Numbered from the stretch's first letter, positions 2,916-14,210 are shown. The stretch: 25,446 nt of DNA from Candidatus Iainarchaeum sp. (GCA_013154145.1 JAADDC010000063.1:1-25446); one strand, 5' to 3'. Numbers and translations: made by a program. The notes: generated from the letters alone by a model not told the origin.

Positions 2916-5065
2916 TGGACCCGGCGAGGCTCGTTCTCGAGAGGAATCGCTACGAGGACTTCAACCCGGTTCAGAAGGAAGCTTTGAAGGCTGGTGTCAC
3001 CGAGGGCGTCAACCTCGTTGTGGCGTCCCCCACCGCCTCGGGCAAGACCACCATAGCGGAGCTGGCCATGGTTGCCTCGATCCTCCGGGGGAAGAAGGCC
3101 GTCTACACCTCCCCCCTCAGGGCCCTGGCCGCCGAGCACTACAGGGAGTTCGCCCGGAAGTACCCAGAGTTCAGGGTGGCCCTCTCCATAGGCGACTACG
3201 ACTCCAAGGACGCACACCTCAAGCACTATGACGCCATCTTCACCACCTACGAGAAGCTGGACTCGCTCATAAGACACAGGGCGCCATGGCTGCCGGACGT
3301 GGGAGTACTTGTCGTCGACGAGGTGCACAGCATCGACTCGGACAGGGGGCCCACCCTGGAAGTGTTGCTCACCCGCATGAAGTCCTTTGATATCCAAATA
3401 GTGGCCCTCTCGGCCACCATCCCCAACGCCGAGGAGATAGCCGGCTGGCTGAGGGCAAAGCTCGTGGTCTCCAACTGGCGGCCCGTGGAGCTCGTAGAAG
3501 GTGTCTACTACGATGGCGTCGTGAGGTTCAACAACGGCGAAGAGCTCCGTTTCTCCAGCGAAGAGGAAATCATAGAAGACGCCCTAAAGAGGGGGAAGGG
3601 CGTGCTCATCTTCGCCCCCACGAGGCGCTCTGCCATGGCCACCGCCAGAAAACTCAGGGAGATAACCAAGAAGTACGTGAGGGGGAGAACTCCCCTGAGG
3701 AGCCTCGCGGAGAGGGTGCTGAACGCCCTGGAATCCCCCACGGCACAGTGTAAAGAGCTGGCCGAGGACATACTCCACGGCGTTGCCTTCCACCACGCGG
3801 GTCTCGTCCAGAAGCAGAGGGAGGTGGTGGAGGAGGGCTTCAGAAGCGGAAAGATAAAGGTGGTGGTGGCCACGCCCACGCTGGCCGCCGGCGTCAACCT
3901 GCCGGCCTTCCGGGTCATCATCACTTCGTTGAGGAGGAGCGAGGGCTTTTACAGCAGGGAGATCCCCGTGAGGGAGTACAAGCAGATGGCGGGGAGGGCC
4001 GGCCGGCCCCGGTACGACGAGAGGGGCGAGGCCATCATCATAGCCCGCACGCCCAAGGACGCCGAGCACTACTTTGAGAAGTACGTGATGGGGGAGCCCG
4101 AAGAAGTTTATTCCCGCCTGTCCTCCTACAGGGCCATACGGTTCCACACGCTGGGGCTCATAGCGGACCGAACTGTGAGAAATCGCGACGCCCTCCTGGA
4201 CTTCTTCGCCAGCAGCTTCTTCTTCTATCAAAGCAAGGACGTGGACAGGCTCGAGGAGCTCCTCTCGTCGGCGGTCCTCGAGCTGGAGCTCTGGGAGATG
4301 ATCAAGGACTTCGAGCCCACGAGGCTGGGGAGCCGCGTGGCCTCCCTCTACATTGATCCCGAGACGGGGAGGATGTTCTACGATTTCTCCCGGAGGCCAA
4401 AGCTCGGCGAAGTGCCCGTGCTCTTCCTCATTGCCTCCTCCGTGGAGCTTTATCCGTACCTGCCGGTGTCGAGGAAGGAGGAGATGGAACTCCTGATGAT
4501 GGCCGAGGAGATGAAGGAGGAGCTCCCCGTGGACTTCGAGGAGGCCCTCAACGACATACACTTCCTCAACAGGTTCAAGCTGGCACTTTTACTATCCAAG
4601 TGGGTGAACGAGGCGGACGAGGACGAGATACTGAAGGAGTTCGGGGTCTCGCCGGGGCAGCTGAGGGGTATCATTTCCATTGCCGAGTGGCTGGCCCACT
4701 CCCTGGGGGAGATCGCCAAGGTGGCGGGCAGCGGAGCCGTCTCCGTGTACGCCAAGAAGATGGAGGCGCGGATACGGCACGGCGTCAAGGAAGAGCTGCT
4801 CCCGCTGGTAGAATTGAAGGGCATTGGGAGAAAGAGGGCCCGAAAGCTCTTCAACGCTGGCTTCACTTCCCCGGAGAAGATAAAGAGGGCCGACCCCGTG
4901 GAGCTGGCCAAACTCCTGGGACCCAAGGTAGCCCTTAATATTCTCAAGCAACTTAAGGTTAAGGTGGGGGACGAGGTGAAGGAGAGGATAAGGAAGGTGT
5001 CCCCCGCCGAGCAGACGACCCTGGAGGTGTTCATGGGTGGAGCCCCTGGAGATACTGAGGAGTGA
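2915..5065 (+). CDS. hel308: Hel308/Hjm (Ski2-like SF2) DNA helicase
   Basis: Q motif FNPVQ, Walker A SPTASGKT, PLRALA, DEVH, LSAT, HHAGL, TPTLAAGVNLPA, QMAGRAGRP, C-terminal HhH (LKGIGRKRARKLF). Start at GTG 2915 after GGTGAAGGGG. Confidence 0.95.
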   Translation: MDPARLVLERNRYEDFNPVQKEALKAGVTEGVNLVVASPTASGKTTIAELAMVASILRGKKAVYTSPLRALAAEHYREFARKYPEFRVALSIGDYDSKDAHLKHYDAIFTTYEKLDSLIRHRAPWLPDVGVLVVDEVHSIDSDRGPTLEVLLTRMKSFDIQIVALSATIPNAEEIAGWLRAKLVVSNWRPVELVEGVYYDGVVRFNNGEELRFSSEEEIIEDALKRGKGVLIFAPTRRSAMATARKLREITKKYVRGRTPLRSLAERVLNALESPTAQCKELAEDILHGVAFHHAGLVQKQREVVEEGFRSGKIKVVVATPTLAAGVNLPAFRVIITSLRRSEGFYSREIPVREYKQMAGRAGRPRYDERGEAIIIARTPKDAEHYFEKYVMGEPEEVYSRLSSYRAIRFHTLGLIADRTVRNRDALLDFFASSFFFYQSKDVDRLEELLSSAVLELELWEMIKDFEPTRLGSRVASLYIDPETGRMFYDFSRRPKLGEVPVLFLIASSVELYPYLPVSRKEEMELLMMAEEMKEELPVDFEEALNDIHFLNRFKLALLLSKWVNEADEDEILKEFGVSPGQLRGIISIAEWLAHSLGEIAKVAGSGAVSVYAKKMEARIRHGVKEELLPLVELKGIGRKRARKLFNAGFTSPEKIKRADPVELAKLLGPKVALNILKQLKVKVGDEVKERIRKVSPAEQTTLEVFMGGAPGDTEE

Positions 5066-7160
5066 CGAGGAGAGGAGGGCCATCATAGGCAGGAAGAAGA
5101 GCCTGTTCAGGAAGAATGGCTTCAAGACGGCTTTATATATCGGAAAGATCGAGGAGGAGGGCCCCCTCTACGGCTACGACCTCTACATGGATGCGCTGCT
5201 TCCCCACGTGGTCTTCGTGGCCGGTGCCCGCGGCAGCGGAAAGAGCTACACGCTGGGCGTCATAGCCGAGGAACTGGCCGAGAAGAACCCCTATGTGGGC
5301 GTCCTCATCATCGATCCCATCGGCATCTTCTGGTCCATGAAGCTGCCGAACAGGCAGGAGGAGGAGATCGAGAAGCTGGCCGAGTGGGGCCTGACGCCAA
5401 AGGGATACGACAACGTGGAGGTCTACGTGCCCAAGGGCATGGCAGACCGCATACCGCCCGAAACCTACGACAAGGTCTTCTCCCTGAAGCCCTCCATGCT
5501 CACCACCGACGACTGGGTGTTGACCTTCGGATTGGATCGATTTTCCCCGGCGGGACTGCTCCTGGACAAGGTCCTGGAGATCGTAAGGGAAAAAAGGGGA
5601 GACGACTACGGCCTTGAGGATATCATAGAAGTTTTGGAAAACGAGGAGGAGCTACTGGACAAGGAGAAGGGCTTCAAGAAGGAGACCGTGAGGGCCCTGC
5701 TCTCCCGCTTCTACGCCGCCCGCAACTGGGGCATCTTCGACAGGGAGGGAACGCCCCTCTCGGAGATCATCCAGAAGGGGAAGGTGAGCATACTGGACAT
5801 CTCCTTCCTGGAGGAGAGTGTGGGGGCCCTGGTCATCGGCATCATGGCCCGGAGGATACTCCAGGCCCGGAAGCTCATCACCCGCTCCGTGGCGGCGGAG
5901 CTCCTGAAGCTCTCGGAGAGGGAGAAGCGGGAGGTGGACATCCCGCCCACCTGGCTCATCATCGACGAGGCCCACACCCTCATCCCGGCGGGATCCCGGA
6001 AGACCGCCGCCACGGACCCCCTCATTGAGTACGTGAAGCAGGGCAGGAGGCCCGGCTGCTCCCTGGTCTTTGCCACGCAACAACCCTCTGCCATAGACAG
6101 CAGGGTCCTCTCCCAGCTGGACATACTCATCGTCCACAAGCTGGTCTTCGGCGAGGACGTGAAGGCCGTGGAGAAGAGGATGCCCACGATACTGCCCAAG
6201 GAGTACAGCGGCGTGAGGATGAGGAGGTTGCCCGTAGGCGTGGCCATCATAGGAGACAGGGAGGACTCCACTTCCCGGGCCTTCCTGGCGCGGATACGTC
6301 CCCGGAGGAGCCAGCACGAGGGCCGGGAAGTGGCCGTTGACGAGAAGGTTAGCGTGGAGGTCCCCGAAGAAGGGGAGGAGGTGGAAGAGGTGAAGAAGGA
6401 AAGGAAGGAGGAGAAGCTGAGGCGTTCCTTCGTGGTGAACGTCACGGAGGACAGGGCCAGGAAGATCATGGCCAGTCACGGCAGCTCCTTCTTGAGGAGG
6501 ATACTGGGGGGCGGAGGCAACGTAGTAGATCTAAAATTGAAGTTCGTTCCCGTCTGGGAGGTGACCTTCGCCTACTACAATGCCCCCAGGGGATCCAGCA
6601 AGCGGGTGGCCTACATCGACGGCTACGAGGGGGAGTTCATCCACTACAAGGACGGGAAGATCGTCTTCTCCAAGGGGCTGAAGTACCTCTACAAGCTCTC
6701 CCGGAACCAGAGGAAGTTGCTCCTTTTCCTGAAGACCCACCCGGGCTCCACGCTCTCCGAGATCGTGGCCCGGGCCAAGGTGCCCGCCGCGGTGGTAGAA
6801 AAGGAGCTGGAGCTCCTGAAGCAGGCAGGGCTGGTCAAGGAGGAAGACGGCCGCTACTACACGCCCCTGGAGATCGAGCTACCCCTCTCCCCCGAGCACT
6901 CCCTCATACCCTCCATGAAGGAACTGCTGGTGACCGAGACGAGGATAGAGGACGAGGAGATACTGCCCTACAACTTCAAGGAGGACCGGGTGGCCGAGAT
7001 ACTGCGCTCCATATGGCCCGGCGTAGTCCCCCGGGAGGTGGAGCCCATCTACAGGCCCGTCTGGGTGGGGATAGTCCTCAGGGGAGGGAAGAAGTACAAG
7101 GTCATCGTGGACGCCATCAGCGGCGTGGTGGAAAAGGAGATCCCACTGGTGGAAGCATGA
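5037..7160 (+). CDS. HerA/FtsK-superfamily (DUF87/COG0433-type) ATPase lacking a HAS barrel, with C-terminal PepSY-like - winged HTH - PepSY-like region
   Basis: Walker A GARGSGKS, IIDPIG, Walker B IIDEAH, arginine-finger region QGRRPG, ATQQPS. The C-terminal ~250 aa has two PVW...D(G/A)xxG repeats flanking LSRNQRKLL...TLSEIV...VEKELELLKQAGLV. SD GGAGGTG at 5023-5029. Confidence 0.85.
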   Translation: MEPLEILRSDEERRAIIGRKKSLFRKNGFKTALYIGKIEEEGPLYGYDLYMDALLPHVVFVAGARGSGKSYTLGVIAEELAEKNPYVGVLIIDPIGIFWSMKLPNRQEEEIEKLAEWGLTPKGYDNVEVYVPKGMADRIPPETYDKVFSLKPSMLTTDDWVLTFGLDRFSPAGLLLDKVLEIVREKRGDDYGLEDIIEVLENEEELLDKEKGFKKETVRALLSRFYAARNWGIFDREGTPLSEIIQKGKVSILDISFLEESVGALVIGIMARRILQARKLITRSVAAELLKLSEREKREVDIPPTWLIIDEAHTLIPAGSRKTAATDPLIEYVKQGRRPGCSLVFATQQPSAIDSRVLSQLDILIVHKLVFGEDVKAVEKRMPTILPKEYSGVRMRRLPVGVAIIGDREDSTSRAFLARIRPRRSQHEGREVAVDEKVSVEVPEEGEEVEEVKKERKEEKLRRSFVVNVTEDRARKIMASHGSSFLRRILGGGGNVVDLKLKFVPVWEVTFAYYNAPRGSSKRVAYIDGYEGEFIHYKDGKIVFSKGLKYLYKLSRNQRKLLLFLKTHPGSTLSEIVARAKVPAAVVEKELELLKQAGLVKEEDGRYYTPLEIELPLSPEHSLIPSMKELLVTETRIEDEEILPYNFKEDRVAEILRSIWPGVVPREVEPIYRPVWVGIVLRGGKKYKVIVDAISGVVEKEIPLVEA

Positions 7161-7732
7161 GGGAGTTCAACTACGTGGAGTTACTGCCCCGCCGGGGAGT
7201 GATAGCCGTCCTGGGCAAGGACGTGGAAGAAAAAATAATGAGGGCCGCTGCCTACGCCCGCGAGGAAGGCAAGAAGTTAAAGGTCGTTCCCCTGAACCCG
7301 AGGCAGGCAGAGCTCGCCCAGAGGCTGAACATCCCCACCGTCCACGGCTACCCGGACTACTTCTACGTGCTGCTGGACTTCGAGCCCATGGAGAACCTCT
7401 TCACCGTGGGCAACTGCGACTGTCCCATGCTCCTGAGGCTCTACGAGATGGGGGCCGAGAAGACGGTGGTGCTGCTGAGGAGAAAGTACCACACGGTCTC
7501 CGTGGAGTACAGCACGTACCTCTCTCATCTCATCGAGCCCATTATTTCCCTCTACGGGGAGATCGTGGCCCGCAGGGAAAACCCCTTTGGCCATAGGGTG
7601 GTGGACATCGTCCCCATCGAGGAAGATCCGGAAGAATTGAGGAGGTTGCTCAAGGAGGTTCCCGGGGTCGTGGAGGTGGGGATACTGCCCATAATCCCCT
7701 ACCGCAAGATCGTCCTCAAAAGCTCCCGGTGA
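7157..7732 (+). CDS. Ribose-5-phosphate isomerase A-fold protein with degenerate active site
   Basis: KVVPLNPRQAELAQRLNIP and FGHRVVD...DPEELRRLLKEVPGVVEVGI align with RpiA (VPTS.QA..LA...IP; DNGNFIID...DP.....L..IPGV.E.G). The GTGST, DGADE and KGxG motifs are absent. ATGA overlap with the ATPase stop; the track's 7013 start is spurious. Confidence 0.7.
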   Translation: MREFNYVELLPRRGVIAVLGKDVEEKIMRAAAYAREEGKKLKVVPLNPRQAELAQRLNIPTVHGYPDYFYVLLDFEPMENLFTVGNCDCPMLLRLYEMGAEKTVVLLRRKYHTVSVEYSTYLSHLIEPIISLYGEIVARRENPFGHRVVDIVPIEEDPEELRRLLKEVPGVVEVGILPIIPYRKIVLKSSR

Positions 7733-8505
7733 GAGGAGCAGGGTATCTGCTCGAAGAAGCGGAGCTCCCCGTCGAAGAGGGCGTAGCGGACACCGTCCCT
7801 GTAGTAGCCTCCAGTATCATGGCAGTGGCCGAAGAGCACCGCCACCCTTCGATACAGTCCCCTTCGCTTTCCCCGGAGCTCGTGGGGCGAGTGTCCCTTG
7901 AGGAGGAATAGATCCCTTTCCTCCAGGGCTTTTTCAACGGCGGATAGCTTCCAGAGGGATGGGTTATCCACGCTGACACCACGGAGTGATGTGGAGAACG
8001 GGTCCGAGTCGCTCCAGACGATCTGGAACTCCAGGGAGGGGGTGACCTCCACGCGGGGCAGCGAGCGGATCACATTTGACGGCAGGAAGCCGTGGACGGC
8101 CAGCAGGGGAGGAGCGTAGTAGATCACGGGGAGCAGCTCGTGGAGACGCTCGTAAAGGAGCAACTCAGAGGGGGTCAGGAACCTCACCACGTCGTAGGGA
8201 TAGACAGGGCCCACGTATCGCGGCGACGAGGGGCTTCCCACCTCGTGGTTCCCCCTGAGAAGTATAGCTCCCTCCAGGAAGAGCTCCAAGACCCCCTGAA
8301 TGGTTTCCCGTTGGTGAATCCCCCTGTCGGCGTAGTCGCCGAGAAATATCACCCTGTGGCCCGTTTCCAGGAGCTCCCGGGCGAGGGGGATCACGGAGGG
8401 GTCGCCGTGGAGGTCCCCCACGAAGAATGAAGGAGCGGAGGATTCCACCACGAGCTTGGGGAGCTTCCTTGCCTTCTCTATGGCCTCCAGGAGTAGGTCC
8501 TCCAC
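7699..8505 (-). CDS. PPP-family (PP1/PP2A-like) Ser/Thr protein phosphatase, calcineurin-like metallophosphoesterase
   Basis: GDLHG, GDYADRG, LRGNHE, AVHG, WSD and KGH motifs in correct order; 3' end overlaps the RpiA-like gene by 34 nt. Confidence 0.85.
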   Translation of the reverse strand: MEDLLLEAIEKARKLPKLVVESSAPSFFVGDLHGDPSVIPLARELLETGHRVIFLGDYADRGIHQRETIQGVLELFLEGAILLRGNHEVGSPSSPRYVGPVYPYDVVRFLTPSELLLYERLHELLPVIYYAPPLLAVHGFLPSNVIRSLPRVEVTPSLEFQIVWSDSDPFSTSLRGVSVDNPSLWKLSAVEKALEERDLFLLKGHSPHELRGKRRGLYRRVAVLFGHCHDTGGYYRDGVRYALFDGELRFFEQIPCSSHRELLRTILR

Positions 8506-8526
8506 GAAGGAGAATGAGGGGAAGAG

Positions 8527-8532
8527 CTTATA
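8527..8532 (-). promoter_or_regulatory. Putative TATA box (TATAAG) containing the rpl44e stop codon, serving the phosphatase gene
   Basis: First T is 27 nt before GTG 8505; pyrimidine-rich spacer without SD. Confidence 0.5.
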
Positions 8533-8821
8533 CGTTTACGAGCTCCACCTTCTTCATCCGCTTGTCGATGACGAAGTACGTGTAGTGGCCGCAGACAGAG
8601 CAGCGGGCCAGGAAGGTGGGCTTCTTGTTTTGCTTGTAGACGGTGGTGGTCTTGTGGGCCTTGATCTTGTTGGCGCCGTAGCCCTTGAGCTTGTACTTCC
8701 TCTTGACCCTCTCACCCCAGGCGAGGCCCCTCGTCTGCCTGCGCTTGAACTCCTTGAGGGTGTGCTCCGTGTGGCGGCCGCAGTGCTTGCAGTAGAGCTT
8801 GATCTTCTTGGGGAGTTTCAT
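8528..8821 (-). CDS. rpl44e: 50S ribosomal protein L44e (eL42)
   Basis: MKLPKK...YCKHCGRHTEH...WGER...GYG...KK...RCSVCG zinc-binding pattern; SD GGTGAT upstream. Confidence 0.93.
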   Translation of the reverse strand: MKLPKKIKLYCKHCGRHTEHTLKEFKRRQTRGLAWGERVKRKYKLKGYGANKIKAHKTTTVYKQNKKPTFLARCSVCGHYTYFVIDKRMKKVELVNV

Positions 8822-8854
8822 GGGATCACCGCATAAGCTTTTGCCCTCGGAATC

Positions 8855-8861
8855 TTTTAAA
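8855..8861 (-). promoter_or_regulatory. Putative TATA box (TTTAAAA) containing the cdc6 stop codon, serving rpl44e
   Basis: 40 nt before ATG 8821, leaving a short leader that contains GGTGAT. Confidence 0.45.
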
Positions 8862-10041
8862 GGCTTCTCCTCACGACGGCCAGCAGCTTCGCCGGGTCCA
8901 CGTTGAGGTCCACGATGCGCGTGTTCCCCCTGAAACCCTTGCCCGCCGTCTTCACACTGATGATTCCGTAGGTTTCCAGCTCGTTGAGGTACTCGCGGAA
9001 CTGCCTGTCGCTGACGGGCGTGAGGACGTGGTCTTCCGCCACCTTTCTGTAGTAAGAATAGAGGAGACCCGACGTGACCACCTTCTCCCCTCCGAAGCTG
9101 GACACCCCCTTCTTGCCCAGCTTAAGAGAAGCAAGGGCCATGAGGACGGCCCTGTGCTGTTCTGGCAAGGAAGCCACCATCTCGTAGACGATCTCCTCCT
9201 CTACCAGCTGCCTTGCCCTCTCCACGTGCTCCCTCTCCACCCGCGGGGCGCCCTCCTCCTCGGCGATGTCCCCGGCCCGGAGCAGTAATTGCAGGGCGTA
9301 GCGGGCGTCCCCCGAGTGCTTGGCGGCAAGGGCGGCTGCCAGGGATATGGCCTCCGGGGCCACGGCCCCCTCCTTGAAGGCCTCCTGGGCCCTCTGCTCG
9401 AGGATGATTCTCAGCTGCTCCGCGTTGTAGGGCGGAAAAACCAACTCCACCTCGCAGAGGGTGCTACGGGTCCGGGCGTCCAGCTGCTCCTTGAAGGTGG
9501 GGTTGTTGGATATGCCGATGATGGATATGGAGCCCCTCTCCAGCTCGTCGTTGGCCCGGTTTAAACGATATATGAGGTCCCTGAGCCGCTTGATCATGTC
9601 GATCTCGTCCAGGGCCACCACCAGCCTCAATCCCCTCCCGTCGATGAGCTCCAGGAGTTTGTCGTAGACGGCGGAGGTGGAGTAGCCTATGAGGTCCCGG
9701 GAGGGATCCAGGTGGCGGACCAGCTTCAGGAGCACCGAGTGCTCGCTCTCCCTCATGCCGTTGACGTATATGCCCATGGCAGGGATGTTGTGGGAGCGGG
9801 CGTAGTCGTTGAGGTCAGAGAGGACTTTCTTGGTGACTGCCGTCTTTCCCGTGCCCGTTTTGCCATAGATGAACACGTTCTCTGGTTTCCTGCCCGAGAG
9901 AACGGGCGCTATTTTCTGGGAAAGCTCCCGGATCTCCTCCTCCCTGAAGGGCAGCTCGGAGGGCAGGTAGTGGGGCGAGAGGACGTCCCTGTTCTTGAAG
10001 AGCCTGTACTCCTTCACCACCTCTTCAAAGACGTTGCCCAT
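8857..10041 (-). CDS. cdc6: Orc1/Cdc6 replication initiator (AAA+ plus winged helix)
   Basis: FKNRDVLSPHYLPSELPFREEEI, Walker A GKTGTGKT, Walker B VALDEID, sensor regions ISN and GDARYAL, C-terminal wHTH (FREYLNELETYGII...GFRGNTR). True start ATG 10041 (MGNVFEE); the track extension to 10176 overlaps sepF. Confidence 0.95.
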   Translation of the reverse strand: MGNVFEEVVKEYRLFKNRDVLSPHYLPSELPFREEEIRELSQKIAPVLSGRKPENVFIYGKTGTGKTAVTKKVLSDLNDYARSHNIPAMGIYVNGMRESEHSVLLKLVRHLDPSRDLIGYSTSAVYDKLLELIDGRGLRLVVALDEIDMIKRLRDLIYRLNRANDELERGSISIIGISNNPTFKEQLDARTRSTLCEVELVFPPYNAEQLRIILEQRAQEAFKEGAVAPEAISLAAALAAKHSGDARYALQLLLRAGDIAEEEGAPRVEREHVERARQLVEEEIVYEMVASLPEQHRAVLMALASLKLGKKGVSSFGGEKVVTSGLLYSYYRKVAEDHVLTPVSDRQFREYLNELETYGIISVKTAGKGFRGNTRIVDLNVDPAKLLAVVRRSL

Positions 10042-10053
10042 AATACCCACTCC

Positions 10054-10083
10054 TATTAAAATCCTGCGGGATAACAGTTTATA
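10054..10083. promoter_or_regulatory. Divergent cdc6/sepF promoter region: TATTAAAA (+, 10054-10061), near-palindrome ATCCTGCGGGAT (10061-10072), TTTATA/TATAAA (10078-10083)
   Basis: AT-rich boxes in a 68-nt intergenic spacer; SD GAGGTGAT at 10097-10104 for sepF and GGAG before cdc6. Confidence 0.45.
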
Positions 10084-10109
10084 GAGGTGCATCAGTGAGG
10101 TGATAAGTG

Positions 10110-10466
10110 ATGGGGCTCCTGGACGCCATATTCGGAAGGAAGAGGGAAGAGATTGAGCTGGACGAGTTTCTGGCATCCCTCGAAGAGGGCGAAGAAATCC
10201 TCGAAGAGGCCAAGATGTACGTGAAGCCCATGCAGCTGCTCTCCCAGAAGGATTACGACGTGGTGATCTCCGAGCTGGAGAAGGGCAACATCGTACTGCT
10301 GAACATACGCCCCATGGCCTCCCGGAACATGATGATGGTGAAGGAGGTCGTGGGCAAGATCAAGGACTACGTCCTGGAGCACGGCGGGGACATCGCCAGG
10401 ATCACGGAGTATTACGTTCTCGTGACCCCGCCTGGGGTAAAAATCGTGAAGCGTAGATCCCGATGA
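10110..10466 (+). CDS. sepF: Archaeal cell division protein SepF (FtsZ membrane anchor)
   Basis: N-terminal amphipathic helix MGLLDAIFGRK, acidic linker, core YVKP...ELEKGNIVLLNI...GGDIARI...VLVTPPGVKI. ATG 10110 follows SD GAGGTGAT; GTG 10107 is an alternative. Confidence 0.88.
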   Translation: MGLLDAIFGRKREEIELDEFLASLEEGEEILEEAKMYVKPMQLLSQKDYDVVISELEKGNIVLLNIRPMASRNMMMVKEVVGKIKDYVLEHGGDIARITEYYVLVTPPGVKIVKRRSR

Positions 10467-11167
10467 AGCTGGCCTACCCAGCTCCCACCCTCTCCATTGG
10501 CCTTGACACACTTTCAAAGGTAGTGGCCGATGTACTCAGGAAGAAGCACTGGCACCGCTTCAAGGAGGGCACCGTCAAGCTCGTTTACATTCCCGTCTAC
10601 GTTTTCACCTACGAGGTGTTTCTGGAGGAGAACGGCGTCGTCGTGATGGAACAGACGGGGAAGGTGGCCGTCAACGGAGAGACGGGAGAGCTGCTTGAAC
10701 ACGTTCCCTACGTTCTCGACGAGATGCCCCTGGAGCTGACCACCGAGCCCAAGCACGGCTACCAGATGGAGGTGAGGGACTTCACCCTCTCGAAGGAGGA
10801 GGCCAAGGAGTTGGCTCAAATAAAGTTAGCGTCCCTCCTGAAGCTCCCCAGGTCCGCCATAAAGGTGGTGGGAGGGAACAAGCTCCTCTGGCCCGTCTGG
10901 AAGGTCTGGGTGGAGGTGAGGGAGGGCACCTACCGCCTTGACGTGGACGGCGTCACGGGCATGGTTTTCGGGGCCGAGAAGGTTCCCGAGAGGGAGCTGG
11001 GCTGGTACGAGATCACTCAGCAGGTGCTCACGGAGCTGAGGTCCCCCCGCGGCTGGATAAAGTACCTGAACAAGCTGGCGGAGCTCCTGAGGGTTCCCCC
11101 GTGGGTGGTCTACACCGCGGTCTTCGGACTGATCCTCTACCTGCTTTATATTATCTTCGTCAGGTAG
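10463..11167 (+). CDS. Uncharacterised membrane-anchored protein with two PepSY-like repeats and a C-terminal transmembrane helix
   Basis: Repeats LVYIPVYVF...VAVNGETG and LLWPVWKV...LDVDGVTG; hydrophobic C-terminus VPPWVVYTAVFGLILYLLYIIFV; no N-terminal signal peptide; ATGA overlap with sepF. Confidence 0.75.
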   Translation: MKLAYPAPTLSIGLDTLSKVVADVLRKKHWHRFKEGTVKLVYIPVYVFTYEVFLEENGVVVMEQTGKVAVNGETGELLEHVPYVLDEMPLELTTEPKHGYQMEVRDFTLSKEEAKELAQIKLASLLKLPRSAIKVVGGNKLLWPVWKVWVEVREGTYRLDVDGVTGMVFGAEKVPERELGWYEITQQVLTELRSPRGWIKYLNKLAELLRVPPWVVYTAVFGLILYLLYIIFVR

Positions 11168-11184
11168 TAACAAGCCGTGGTCCC

Positions 11185-11197
11185 CCGTTAAAAACGG
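11185..11197. promoter_or_regulatory. Inverted repeat CCGTT-AAA-AACGG overlapping a TATA-like TTAAAAA (internal promoter, operator or terminator)
   Basis: Perfect 5-bp arms; TTAAAAA starts 31 nt before GTG 11219; followed by a pyrimidine tract. Confidence 0.35.
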
Positions 11198-11218
11198 CGC
11201 TGCTCTCCTTTTCTCGTC

Positions 11219-11647
11219 GTGGAAAAGCCCCTGATCTCCTTCTCAGAGGGCAGCAGCGACGTGGAGAAAAGGCTGCTCTCCCTTGAAAGGGAGCTCCTTT
11301 TACTGAAAAGTCGTGTCCGGAAGCTCGAGGAAGCCCTGAAGGAGTACTTAAAAGAAGAGGAGCCCGAGGAGGCCCTGTTAACCACCCTCGACGTGAGCAA
11401 CCCCCGGGTGGTGGAGATCGTCCTCGACTGGGTCAACTTCATGCTCTCGAAGGTGGGGGAGGAGGAGCTCCCCGTGCTATTGGACTACTACCGCTCCATC
11501 GGCTGGATATCCCGGGAGGTGGCGGAGATGCTCCTCCGCTACGCCCGGGGCATCAGGGTGGAGAGCTACAGGGGGTACATGACCCCCGAGGATCACGTGA
11601 AGAGCCTCGAGTACATAAACCGCATAAGGGAGGCGATGGGAAGATGA
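11219..11647 (+). CDS. Stand-alone ArlD/E (FlaD/E)-domain protein with N-terminal coiled coil
   Basis: IVLDWVNFMLSKVG...LLDYYRSIGWISREV...LLRYARG...EDHVKSLEYINRI matches the recalled Arch_fla_DE consensus (W..yL...G......L.YY..igWis......L.......dH..SL.yi..l); N-terminal heptads VEKRLLSLERELLLLKSRVRKLEEAL. Confidence 0.82.
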   Translation: MEKPLISFSEGSSDVEKRLLSLERELLLLKSRVRKLEEALKEYLKEEEPEEALLTTLDVSNPRVVEIVLDWVNFMLSKVGEEELPVLLDYYRSIGWISREVAEMLLRYARGIRVESYRGYMTPEDHVKSLEYINRIREAMGR

Positions 11648-12417
11648 AGCTGGCCGTGCTCTCGGGGAAGGGCGGTGTGGGCAAGACCCTGCTCTCCATC
11701 AACCTCTCCGTCATCTTTGCCCAGGAGGGCTACAAGGTACTGCTGGTGGATGCCAACTTCTCGGCCCCCACGGTGGCCACCTACTTCAAGACCGTCCCCA
11801 ACACCCACACCATAGACGAAGCCTTGGCAAAGGGTGCCACGGACCTCTCCTCCCTCGTGTGGATACACCCGTCGGGCGTGCACTTCGTGACACCCTCCTT
11901 CAACCTCGTGGGCCTCGACGACGAGACCCTCAGGAACATCTTCACCCTATTATCCCCCCTCTTCCCCAACTACGACTTCGTGATTTTCGACGGTCCTGCC
12001 GGCGTAGAGAAGGACGCCTACTACACGGTTCTCCACTCGGACGCGGCCCTCATCGTCACAAACCCCAACTACCCTGCCCTCTACAACGCCCTGAAGGTCA
12101 ACTACTTCGTCCAGGCCATGAAGAAGCCCGTGGTGGGCGCCGTCCTCAACATGGTCACGGGCAAGGACGAGGTGTCCCGGGAGGAGGCCCAGGCCATCGT
12201 GGAGGCCCCCATCATCGGCGAGATCCCCTATGATCCGGAGGTGAAGAAGGCCGTTAACGCTGGTCAGCCCGTGGTCCTCTACAACCCCAATGCGCCCGCG
12301 TCGAGGGCCATATACCAGATTGCCGAGGCGCTGTTGGGCAGGAAGCTCAGGAGGAAGCCCAGGGGCGGAGGTATCGGCGACATCATCAAGCGCGTCATCG
12401 ACTGGCTGCTGGGATAA
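11644..12417 (+). CDS. minD: MinD/ParA-family ATPase with C-terminal amphipathic membrane-targeting helix
   Basis: Deviant Walker A SGKGGVGKT, LLVDAN, IFDGPAG, VLNMV, IPYDPEVKKA...GQPVV, C-terminal GIGDIIKRVIDWLLG; ATGA overlap with the ArlD/E-domain gene. Confidence 0.9.
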   Translation: MKLAVLSGKGGVGKTLLSINLSVIFAQEGYKVLLVDANFSAPTVATYFKTVPNTHTIDEALAKGATDLSSLVWIHPSGVHFVTPSFNLVGLDDETLRNIFTLLSPLFPNYDFVIFDGPAGVEKDAYYTVLHSDAALIVTNPNYPALYNALKVNYFVQAMKKPVVGAVLNMVTGKDEVSREEAQAIVEAPIIGEIPYDPEVKKAVNAGQPVVLYNPNAPASRAIYQIAEALLGRKLRRKPRGGGIGDIIKRVIDWLLG

Positions 12418-12501
12418 GGGCTTTAAGGTTTCCGAACGTCAGCTTTAAAACACTTTTTAAACTCCTTAAACGACGATCAGCTTCGCCCCGGTGGGGTGCC
12501 C
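12418..12501 (+). promoter_or_regulatory. AT-rich promoter region of the RNA polymerase operon with several TATA-like boxes
   Basis: CTTTAAG 12421, CTTTAAAA 12443, TTTTTAAA 12454, CTTAAA 12465; SD-like GGGGTG before ATG 12502. Confidence 0.6.
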
Positions 12502-12741
12502 ATGGCCAGCAAGAAGCGTTCTATTCTGGACCACGTTTTTGTGCCCAAGGCGAGGATTCTCTCCAAGGAAGAGGTGGAAGAGGTACTCAGGAAGTACAGG
12601 GTGAGCAAGGAGAACCTTCCCAAAATCCTTGAGACCGACCCGGTGGTTGTGGAACTCGGGGCGAAGAAGGGGGACGTCATCGAGTTCATTAGAAACTCCC
12701 CCGTGGCGGGGAAGAGCATCTATTACCGCGTGGTGATATGA
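12502..12741 (+). CDS. rpoH: RNA polymerase subunit Rpo5 (H)
   Basis: ILDHVFVPKARILS...LPKILETDPVV...GDVIEFIRNSPVAG...YYRVV; ATG 12502 preferred over GTG 12496. Confidence 0.97.
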   Translation: MASKKRSILDHVFVPKARILSKEEVEEVLRKYRVSKENLPKILETDPVVVELGAKKGDVIEFIRNSPVAGKSIYYRVVI

Positions 12742-14210
12742 TGGGCTACTGGGAGCTGGTAGACGCCTACTTCAGGCAGGAGACCCTCGTGAGTCAGCAG
12801 ATCGATTCTTACAACCAGTTCGTGGAGGAGCGCATACCCGAGATCATAGAGGAGCACTCCGTCATCGACCCCGAGGTGGGGGACCTGGTCATCGAGGTGA
12901 AGGGCTATCACATAGAGCGACCTTATATGCAAGAAATAGACGGTGCCCACAGGCGCCTCTACCCCATGGAGGCCAGGATCAGGAACCGCAGCTACATGGC
13001 GCCCATCTACCTGGACATGATTGCCATCAGGAGGAACGTGGAGATACAGAGGGCGCGAATAAGGATTGGCGAGATCCCCGTGATGGTCAAGTCCACCCTC
13101 TGCTGGCTGAACGGGCTCTCCCCCAAGGAGCTGGTGGCCCTCGGGGAGGACCCCCTTGACTTCGGCGGCTACTTCATCATCAACGGCGTCGAGAAGGCCC
13201 TCGTGGCCCACGACGAGCCGGCCCCCAACAAGATCATGGTCTCACGGGCCGACGAACAAAAGACGAAGATCATCGCCCAGGTCTTCTCCCGGAGGGGCGC
13301 CTACACGGGGAAGACCATGGTCATCAGGCGAAAGGACGGCATCTGGAACGTTTCCTTCCCCTCCGTGCTCCAGATCCGCTGGACGGTTCTCATGAGGGCC
13401 CTGGGCTTCACGGACGATCAGGAGATCCTGGACGCCCTCATCGGGGAGAAGGAAGTGGTCAACGACGTGCTCCTCAACCTCGAGCAGTCGGAGGTTAAAA
13501 CAGAGGAAGAGGCCCTGGAGATGATAGGTAGAATTGTGGCGCCCGGCCAGATCAGGGAGTACCAGCTCAGGAGGGCCCAGGAGGTCATTGACAACTTCCT
13601 GCTTCCCCACATAGGGACCCAGCCCGAGCACCGCAAGGCCAAGGGCTACTTCCTCATCCGCATGGCCGAGCGCACCTCCGAAGTTTACTACAACCTCCGT
13701 CCTGTGGACGACAAGGATCACCTGGCCAACAAGCGGATAGAGCTTGCGGGCCGCCTCATGGAGACCCTCTTCGTCTTCGCCCTGAGGGCCCTCATCAGGG
13801 ACATCAGGTTCCAGGTGGAGAGGGCCCTGGCCAGGAGGAAGAGGATCAGGCTCCAGACCATCGTGAGGCCCGGTGCCTTCACGGACGCCGTCTACTTCGC
13901 CATGAACACGGGCACCTGGCCCAACAGGAGGACCGGCGTTTCCCAGATCCTCAACAGGACCAACTTCATCGCCCCCATCTACGAGCTCAACAGGGTCAAG
14001 TCCCCCCTCTCCAAGAAGCGAAAGAACTTCGAGGCGAGGGAAGTGCACGGCACCCACTTCGGCCGCTTCTGCCCCATACAAACACCCGAGGGTCAGTCCT
14101 GTGGTCTCGTTAAGTACTTCGCCCTGATGGCCCGCACCACCACGGCCGACGACCCCGAGAGGATTGAAAGGCTCCTGAGAAAGCTTGGTGTCACGACGGT
14201 GGTAGGATGA
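12738..14210 (+). CDS. rpoB'': RNA polymerase subunit Rpo2N (B'')
   Basis: QIDSYNQF, YPMEARIRN..Y.AP, GEIPVMVKS, EDPLDFGGYFIING, DDKDHLANKRIELAG, HGTHFGRFCP..TPEG..CGLVK. Confidence 0.97.
   Translation: MMGYWELVDAYFRQETLVSQQIDSYNQFVEERIPEIIEEHSVIDPEVGDLVIEVKGYHIERPYMQEIDGAHRRLYPMEARIRNRSYMAPIYLDMIAIRRNVEIQRARIRIGEIPVMVKSTLCWLNGLSPKELVALGEDPLDFGGYFIINGVEKALVAHDEPAPNKIMVSRADEQKTKIIAQVFSRRGAYTGKTMVIRRKDGIWNVSFPSVLQIRWTVLMRALGFTDDQEILDALIGEKEVVNDVLLNLEQSEVKTEEEALEMIGRIVAPGQIREYQLRRAQEVIDNFLLPHIGTQPEHRKAKGYFLIRMAERTSEVYYNLRPVDDKDHLANKRIELAGRLMETLFVFALRALIRDIRFQVERALARRKRIRLQTIVRPGAFTDAVYFAMNTGTWPNRRTGVSQILNRTNFIAPIYELNRVKSPLSKKRKNFEAREVHGTHFGRFCPIQTPEGQSCGLVKYFALMARTTTADDPERIERLLRKLGVTTVVG

Follow-up and report, generated by a model that had tools for sequence, protein, structure and literature searches.

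Two gene pairs, sepF-P2 and arlD/E-minD, adjoin in one family of Iainarchaeota: a candidate SepF partner and a possible archaellum-placement unit

Two gene pairs lie next to each other on the plus strand of a 25,446-nucleotide (nt) contig of Candidatus Iainarchaeum sp. (GCA_013154145.1, JAADDC010000063.1:1-25446; hereafter the window, meaning this whole stretch at its full length): sepF with a gene for a tail-anchored membrane protein that we call P2, and a gene for a short ArlD/E-domain protein (arlD/E) with a gene for a MinD-type ATPase (minD). The window corresponds to contig C15 of a tiny metagenome-assembled genome (MAG; 543 kb or ~0.54 Mb in 76 contigs, 81% complete; labeled G000 here) from a vent archaeon of the DPANN group that belongs to the phylum Iainarchaeota/Diapherotrites, within which we label its family f1 and its genus g1. 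A first-pass annotation of this DNA had taken the four genes for one compact module connecting the division ring, a polar scaffold, and a positioning ATPase. Based on a survey of 215 genomes of the phylum, we favor with moderate confidence a different reading in which sepF-P2 and arlD/E-minD are separate units of transcription and function that adjoin only in family f1, the former probably serving the divisome and the latter probably the placement of the archaellum. The features of this part of the window are the following:

8857..10041, minus strand: orc1/cdc6 replication initiator (TIGR02928, 1e-107, plus Cdc6_lid and Cdc6_C)
10042..10109: divergent promoter region of 68 nt (TTTATA at 10078-10083 for sepF; GAGGTGA at 10097-10103)
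10110..10466, plus strand: sepF, 118 amino acids (aa; PF04472; alternative GTG start at 10107)
10463..11167, plus strand: P2, 234 aa, predicted to be tail-anchored with two PepSY-like alpha+beta domains (AlphaFold2 (AF2) model, fold searches, hydropathy)
11168..11218, plus strand: spacer of 51 nt, putative promoter of the second unit and variable insertion slot (TTAAAAA at 11188-11194)
11219..11647, plus strand: ArlD/E-domain paralogue, 142 aa, N-terminal coiled coil and Arch_fla_DE domain (PF04659)
11644..12417, plus strand: MinD-type ATPase, 257 aa (deviant Walker A GKGGVGKT; C-terminal amphipathic helix IGDIIKRVIDWLLG)
12418..12495, plus strand: spacer before rpoH (TATA-like boxes and a T-run)
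12496..12741, plus strand: rpoH, first gene of the rpoH-rpoB''-rpoB'-rpoA operon and part of neither unit (PF01191, 1.7e-28)

The four open reading frames (ORFs), the ATGA overlaps between sepF and P2 (10463-10466) and between arlD/E and minD (11644-11647), and the 51-nt gap between the pairs had all been described in the first-pass annotation and were borne out by our reading of ORFs and sequence, as was the tight coupling inside each pair. On their own, these overlaps mean little because such overlaps are commonplace in this genome, with ca. 13 of the 20 adjacent plus-strand ORF pairs in the window overlapping; what stands above chance is the conservation of the gene pairs and not the overlaps. 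Profile searches supported the identities that had been given to SepF, the ArlD/E-domain protein, and the MinD-type ATPase, while the twin PepSY domains ascribed to P2 could be recovered at the level of the fold only.

The window SepF matches PF04472 with 43.2 bits (cut-off 27) over positions 1-72 of the 72-position profile, it is most similar in the PDB to the archaeal SepF-like proteins 3zig and 3zie, and its gene is the only one of the SepF family in the genome, which also carries two tubulin/FtsZ genes (contigs C10 and C6). Tethering of FtsZ to the membrane by SepF is established in archaea, and Pende et al. found the gene context of archaeal sepF to be variable (PMC8178401). Like the SepF proteins of Haloferax volcanii (HVO_0392) and Methanobrevibacter smithii, the window protein has the Pfam SepF domain, a length of ~118 aa, and possibly an N-terminal membrane-targeting patch, and it is likewise encoded by a single-copy gene in a genome with two FtsZ genes; the difference is that sepF is encoded here together with a tail-anchored partner and divergently from cdc6. 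Amphipathic helices had been proposed for SepF and MinD, which holds for the C-terminal helix of MinD (see below), while the N-terminus of the window SepF (MGLLDAIFGRK) forms a short patch of hydrophobic character whose computed moment is just 0.17-0.37; homologous SepF N-termini of the phylum that align with it are more clearly amphipathic, with moments of 0.5-0.6. An identity of this protein as OapB/DipB/ArcoB (DUF2073) was rejected, given that PF09846 matched neither the protein (E<0.1) nor anything in the genome at its 81% completeness.

P2 follows sepF across the phylum. Its profile matches at least 171 of the 215 genomes, almost always in single copy, and SepF matches 204 of them. Among 16 inspected loci from families other than f1, P2 lies directly 3' of sepF in 15, the last one ending at a contig edge; the full order with cdc6 divergent from sepF-P2 is present at 13, and two more are short of cdc6 only. 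When the coordinate lists of P2 and SepF were compared by eye, some 60 further genomes had P2 no more than ~600 nt downstream of SepF, with exceptions to this close spacing in G197 (1.35 kb) and G182 (different contigs). In five genomes without a hit in the genome-wide search, local searches with hidden Markov models (HMMs) did reveal P2 adjoining sepF; two more have a diverged tail-anchored ORF 3' of sepF, and another two yielded nothing. The pairing is kept although the identity of P2 drops to ~30% across the phylum. Protein searches by words did not extend past the lineage or the phylum, and a scan of genome contigs gave members of family f1 only. Because P2 is found phylum-wide, is nearly always single-copy, and adjoins sepF, we regard it as a strong candidate for a partner of SepF on the grounds of gene order and conservation, and the arrangement of cdc6 divergent from sepF-P2 appears, from the same comparisons, to be old and phylum-wide. 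One genome, G157, carries two sepF-P2 pairs (C1:37771-38626 and C52:3317-4166), reflecting either a true duplication or two strains binned together. We also considered a seemingly conserved odd frame that lies 3' of sepF in G036 and G186; it had no match in Rfam and probably reads the antisense strand of a convergent gene.

No match to P2 was found in Pfam or NCBIfam. The AF2 model, built with 17 homologues (pLDDT 84.7), has two helix-plus-sheet domains (residues ~1-175), two juxtamembrane helices, and a terminal transmembrane helix at residues 213-232. Its nearest folds in the PDB are, weakly, those of the PepSY proteins YpeB, CD1622, and YpmB (5boi, 4exr, and 2gu3; Foldseek E 0.01; VIA-align Z 6-6.5, under the noise level of ~8), and a cluster of the AlphaFold database that is named PepSY was hit at E 1.8e-9 with a TM-score of 0.67 by the hit. 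Pfam PepSY (PF03413) was the top family, yet sub-threshold (best E 0.0017), in 2 of 15 P2 homologues and did not match the window P2, which thus does not qualify as a PepSY protein by sequence; "twin PepSY-like" is a fair description of the modeled fold and not a family assignment. The most conserved stretch of P2 is juxtamembrane (residues ~172-201, motif VPERExGxxEIT...P..W.KY). Hydropathy (Kyte-Doolittle, 19-residue window) peaks with 2.52 at residues 215-233 of 234 without any other hydrophobic segment, which agrees with the membrane anchor that had been noted earlier for this protein, and no signal peptide was found; 15 P2 homologues share this layout of a single C-terminal transmembrane helix without a signal peptide. 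Since its sole hydrophobic segment is C-terminal and a signal peptide is lacking, we infer that the PepSY-like domains of P2 face the cytoplasm, and in other organisms the fold module of P2 is also found joined to HerA, Mrr, DnaJ, and zinc-ribbon proteins of the cytoplasm.

This fold would also suit a protein that has nothing to do with cell division, i.e., a PepSY-type protease regulator or some other housekeeping membrane protein that frozen synteny has left behind sepF. Makarova, Wolf, and Koonin described a DPANN-specific cluster, cls.004634 ("YpeB or double PepSY-like"; CMH64_01370), in 34 of 67 DPANN genomes, with an HHpred match to PDB 3NQZ and a predicted role as protease inhibitor (PMC6393860), and this published prediction favors such a function just as the PepSY-like fold itself does, as does the failure to find P2 in some families that have sepF. 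We likened P2 to this cluster by description and not by sequence, and the two are probably the same family; 3NQZ is also among the fold matches of P2 (Z 5.2), and linkage to sepF, a tail anchor, or a cytoplasmic orientation are not mentioned for the cluster (PMC6393860). A role outside of division is nonetheless unlikely in our view, given that the pair is kept throughout the phylum down to ~30% identity of P2 while the surrounding genes change, that sepF and P2 overlap or sit tens of bases apart, and that both appear to have been duplicated together in G157. The predicted topology, moreover, would place the PepSY-like domains in the cytoplasm and away from secreted proteases, in line with the cytoplasmic proteins to which the module is fused elsewhere. 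If P2 does belong to cls.004634, our results would suggest a different role for a family of the DPANN "dark matter" that has been predicted to inhibit proteases.

A HerA-like ATPase is encoded at 5037-7160 of the window, and its tail is composed of a winged helix-turn-helix between PepSY-like units that weakly resemble P2. It is therefore conceivable that P2 forms a septal dock for this HerA/FtsK-like ATPase with its similar PepSY-like modules, encoded 3 kb upstream, to give a septum-anchored DNA translocase. In a profile comparison with hhalign, P2 and the ATPase tail matched over 38 columns with E 8e-5 and a probability of 61%; the tail has a sub-threshold match to Pfam PepSY (E 0.009), clusters of HerA are among the ESM-Atlas fold neighbors of P2, and an ATPase with this tail is present in all 61 searched genomes of the class, usually in a frame of 950-1100 aa. 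Yet the resemblance is faint and covers a short stretch (BLASTP E 0.17) and, outside of f1, the ATPase gene lies far from sepF-P2, at a distance of hundreds of kb in G018, G031, G020, and G033, so that we consider such a translocase very improbable.

We prefer to view sepF-P2 as a unit of the divisome in which SepF, the FtsZ tether, would be made together with a tail-anchored protein of the same membrane. Where the cell divides, P2 might cooperate with SepF and provide the SepF-FtsZ ring with a second membrane anchor, a receptor, or a regulator. To our knowledge, few proteins beyond FtsZ1/2, SepF, and CdpA/B are known from the archaeal FtsZ divisome, and we know of none that has been studied in DPANN archaea. 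A single-copy membrane protein that is tied to sepF phylum-wide makes P2 a concrete and testable divisome candidate. The haloarchaeal PRC-barrel proteins CdpB1/2/3 are a precedent for the recruitment of lineage-conserved accessory proteins by SepF (10.1101/2023.03.28.534520). They differ from P2 in their fold (PRC barrel versus twin PepSY-like) and in that P2 is predicted to be membrane-anchored, and their genes are mostly not beside sepF, unlike that of P2.

Upstream, cdc6 (360 bits to TIGR02928) was confirmed to be divergent from sepF, as had been noted, and this is conserved across the phylum with 13 of the 16 inspected loci from other families sharing the orientation. The cdc6 frame extends to 10176, with homology beginning at the ATG at 10041 (MGNVF...), so that the starts of the two genes are just 68 nt apart; the TATA box and GAGGTG of sepF are kept in 9-10 related loci. 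No ORB-like origin repeats were seen around cdc6, and the 68-nt region is too small for an origin of this kind. These back-to-back promoters might let genes for division and replication initiation be expressed in step. In Haloferax, the OapABC = DipABC = ArcoABC oscillator comprises a protein with SepF fold, and this set is encoded beside orc1/cdc6 (PMC13228585; 10.64898/2026.07.23.738820). The likeness to the window lies in the placement of division genes beside orc1/cdc6; the window gene, however, is a true sepF and not OapB/DUF2073, a GTPase or zinc-ribbon partner is missing from the locus, and neither DipA nor DipC is related to P2. Taken together with oapABC/dipABC beside orc1 in haloarchaea, the divergent promoter pair of cdc6 and sepF hints at a repeated association of replication-initiation genes and division genes in genomes.

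The second pair has a very different distribution. The ArlD/E-domain protein of the window matches PF04659 (Arch_fla_DE) with 76.1 bits (cut-off 21; 2e-21) over residues 61-137, and this domain was detected in 14 of the 215 genomes, all of them in f1, which is the only family of the phylum with Arch_fla_DE and archaellum genes. A true archaellum operon is located on contig C40 of the same genome and encodes archaellins, two T2SSE ATPases, ArlJ, an ArlC-D/E fusion (8915-9685), and ArlH, while the arlD/E gene of the window sits outside of it, between P2 and minD. Because this operon has its own ArlC-D/E, the window protein is an extra paralogue. It shares the Arch_fla_DE domain with euryarchaeal ArlC/D/E and is 53% identical to the ArlC-D/E fusion of its own genome but differs in lacking the FlaC part, in having half the length, in its location outside of the operon, and in its coupling to MinD. 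A HMMER scan of 1.8 billion representatives retrieved 350 Arch_fla_DE proteins, the closest of which are members of the lineage with the same linkage to MinD. We had considered that the arlD/E-minD pair might be widespread in Euryarchaeota, but among these 350 representatives only members of the lineage were linked to MinD; five sampled proteins from outside are encoded in archaellum operons or standing alone, none of them beside MinD. In a domain tree, the D/E domains of MinD-linked proteins and of archaellum ArlCDE from f1 form one clade (SH-aLRT 84) apart from those of other archaea, consistent with a duplication inside family f1. As a side observation, the operon on C40 has two consecutive genes for T2SSE-type ATPases (522 and 544 aa) before arlJ (L032:3182-6381), and the usual layout of archaellum operons includes a single arlI; the double layout also occurs in an unrelated metagenome contig (L052).

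The product of the fourth gene reached 170.7 bits with TIGR01969 (minD_arch), under the cut-off of 201.75, and scored above the cut-offs of Pfam ParA and CbiA, which is why we file it as a MinD-type ATPase of the ParA/MinD kind and not as a certified minD_arch. Its best PDB match is MinD-1 of A. fulgidus (1hyq, 6e-38), the deviant Walker A motif is intact (SGKGGVGKT, residues 7-15; pattern xKGGxGK[ST]), and the C-terminal helix IGDIIKRVIDW has the highest hydrophobic moment of the protein (muH 0.80). Orthologues with at least 56% identity are restricted to f1, whereas other families have a MinD-like gene at 25-39% identity only, which f1 has kept as well (contig C74 of G000); since its orthologues are confined to f1 and the more distant gene is also kept, the window MinD is a family-specific extra paralogue. 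None of 17 genomes from other families has a MinD upstream of rpoH. In six genomes of other families, a MinD-like domain lies inside of open frames of ~745-760 aa (G183:C15:283514-284230, G203, G204, G206, G208, and G209), where it is fused to something large.

The adjacency of the two pairs was found to recur throughout family f1, so the four-gene arrangement is not a peculiarity of this one genome. In genus g1 and a close relative, all four genes are adjacent on one strand with only 30-111 nt between P2 and arlD/E (51 nt in the window). The same slot is occupied in the sister genus g2 by a gene for a KaiC-like ATPase that overlaps P2, with or without a tRNA-Ala, in GCA_054474525 by an HD-domain gene, and in another MAG (L048) by a further 2.2 kb. 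The KaiC/RecA-like gene of g2 (240 aa; PF06745, 6e-37) was located at L028:5612-6334 (G006), at L029:5622-6341 (G007), and on L030 (G011), in some g2 genomes with a tRNA-Ala(CGC) 3' of it (tRNA at L029:6481-6555 in G007). G000 has no orthologue of it, the best paralogues being 32% and 25% identical, and the gene seems to have been lost in the genus of the window.

Whatever lies upstream, arlD/E seems to bring along a promoter of its own. The sequence TTAAAAA at 11188-11194 lies 31 nt before its GTG start, and a TATA-like box is present 27-31 nt before the start in all ten complete orthologous loci shown, with diverging flanks. It is this fixed distance, irrespective of the upstream gene, that argues for a separate promoter and a leaderless mRNA of arlD/E-minD, and we accordingly predict from these boxes that the transcript is probably leaderless. 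TATA boxes ~27-31 nt before GTG or ATG starts were also seen elsewhere (window 7699-8505, 11219, and others), as would fit widespread leaderless mRNAs, with sepF and arlD/E being the two genes for which the TATA-to-start distance was checked.

These observations bear on the notion that all four genes form one module, co-regulated with cdc6, that couples placement of the division ring to a polar scaffold. In its favor, the gene order is the same across f1 and the spacer is short enough for read-through, and the four genes do follow each other closely on one strand in g1. Against it, the two pairs differ in their phyletic ranges, unrelated genes and a tRNA separate them in sister lineages, and arlD/E is preceded by its own conserved promoter, so that the locus does not present itself as a single four-gene operon. 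Nor is the adjacency specific to these genes, as the synteny of f1 covers the entire 25-kb region and runs far past them from Hel308-HerA to rpoA, while sepF-P2 and rpoH are 15-76 kb apart outside of this family. Furthermore, Haloferax cells devoid of all four minD genes retained FtsZ placement (10.1101/2020.04.03.021790). We thus consider a single module quite improbable. Since synteny extends from Hel308 to rpoA, the adjacency of the four genes is best explained as inherited rather than selected, and we conclude from these comparisons that two units probably became neighbors during genome reduction.

For the second unit, we envision that the D/E domain of the f1 ArlCDE was duplicated, shrank to a coiled coil plus D/E domain, and became coupled to an extra MinD paralogue. 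MinD would use its C-terminal helix to bind the membrane, and the ArlD/E paralogue might serve as its cargo adaptor or partner that docks onto ArlCDE of the archaellum motor. The pair would in this way determine where archaella are assembled or permit their assembly, similar to the action of MinD4 on FlaD foci in Haloferax. Deletion of minD4 in this organism lowered the proportion of cells with FlaD foci, which are polar, from ~80% to ~20%, and minD4 is found near flaD and cheW in some haloarchaea (10.1101/2020.04.03.021790). Like the window protein, MinD4 is a MinD of archaea that has a membrane helix at its C-terminus and a genomic link to FlaD/ArlD, but the window minD overlaps a gene for a dedicated short ArlD/E paralogue, is located outside of the archaellum operon, and has no che genes in view. 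In bacteria, the MinD-type ATPases FlhG/FleN set the number and place of flagella. They share with the window MinD the family, a membrane helix, and a motor-associated partner, and both are among its PDB sequence matches, though less similar than 1hyq; the archaeal motor is unrelated, and the partner would be ArlD/E instead of FlhF or FliM/FliY. We know of no partner protein of archaeal MinD ATPases and of no MinC or MinE in archaea. An ArlD/E paralogue whose gene overlaps minD points to a direct contact of MinD and ArlD which, if true, would offer a physical explanation of how proteins like MinD4 find the archaellum motor.

In line with this view, the pair has dissolved in one member of f1, G005 (83% complete), in which neither an archaellin nor ArlJ was found. 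Its MinD has also diverged strongly (46-50% identity) and is unlinked from arlD/E and inverted among methylase and AbiE genes, and an orphan, strongly diverged D/E protein of 111 aa that consists of nearly only Arch_fla_DE is encoded divergently from phosphoenolpyruvate synthase at L125:12239-12574 (contig C1). Immediately 3' of sepF-P2 (L126:2704-6556, contig C18), the inverted minD sits among genes for an N6/N4 DNA methylase, an ABC-type ATPase, and an AbiEii-like nucleotidyltransferase, which suggests that a mobile or defense insertion broke the ancestral order.

The retention of a MinD orthologue by G005, where no archaellum genes were found, would be expected if arlD/E-minD were a Min-like selector of the division site with the ArlD/E paralogue as a partner of the MinE/MinC type, unrelated to the archaellum. 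The location of the pair beside sepF in f1 and the membrane helix and intact deviant Walker A motif of MinD would fit as well. Such a selector is nevertheless confined to a single, archaellated family, while in ~200 other genomes of the phylum division by FtsZ and SepF proceeds without the pair, and its partner domain derives from a protein of the archaellum motor. Where tested, it is Dip/Arco and not MinD that positions the archaeal divisome (PMC13228585; 10.64898/2026.07.23.738820), and we therefore give this explanation little credence.

Several points weigh against our own view of a divisome unit beside an archaellum-placement unit. PepSY domains are normally extracytoplasmic, which makes the predicted orientation of P2 unusual, and the evidence that links P2 to SepF is gene order. 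With an apparent N-terminal membrane patch of its own, the window SepF does not obviously need a second anchor. A few sepF-bearing families (f15 and f18) yielded no P2 in genome-wide and local HMM searches and, having kept sepF without it, suggest that P2 is not indispensable to SepF. Inhibition of proteases has been predicted for the DPANN "double PepSY-like" cluster that is probably the family of P2 (PMC6393860). As to the second unit, G005 (one genome, and an incomplete one) has held on to its MinD orthologue without a detectable archaellum, the joint presence of archaellum and pair in f1 represents one evolutionary event and not a statistic, and support for the clade behind the D/E duplication is moderate (84, from 99 columns). 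A bolder proposal, that P2 is an unrecognized core component of the FtsZ-SepF divisome in Iainarchaeota and perhaps, via cls.004634, in DPANN at large, where it would be a tail-anchored receptor whose cytoplasmic PepSY-like domains bind SepF (or the FtsZ tail), and that ArlD/E is a direct partner or adaptor of MinD, is possible but doubtful in our eyes and can be put forward only tentatively.

Regarding the remainder of the locus, a search of positions 8000-13000 against Rfam had no match, and scans for sigma-70 promoters and terminators are not meaningful for archaea. Among sequencing runs, no RNA run with window DNA was found, and one DNA metagenome from a vent contained it (7% of sampled words). 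Downstream of minD, the spacer at 12418-12495 with its TATA-like boxes and T-run is probably where the arlD/E-minD unit ends and the RNA polymerase operon begins.

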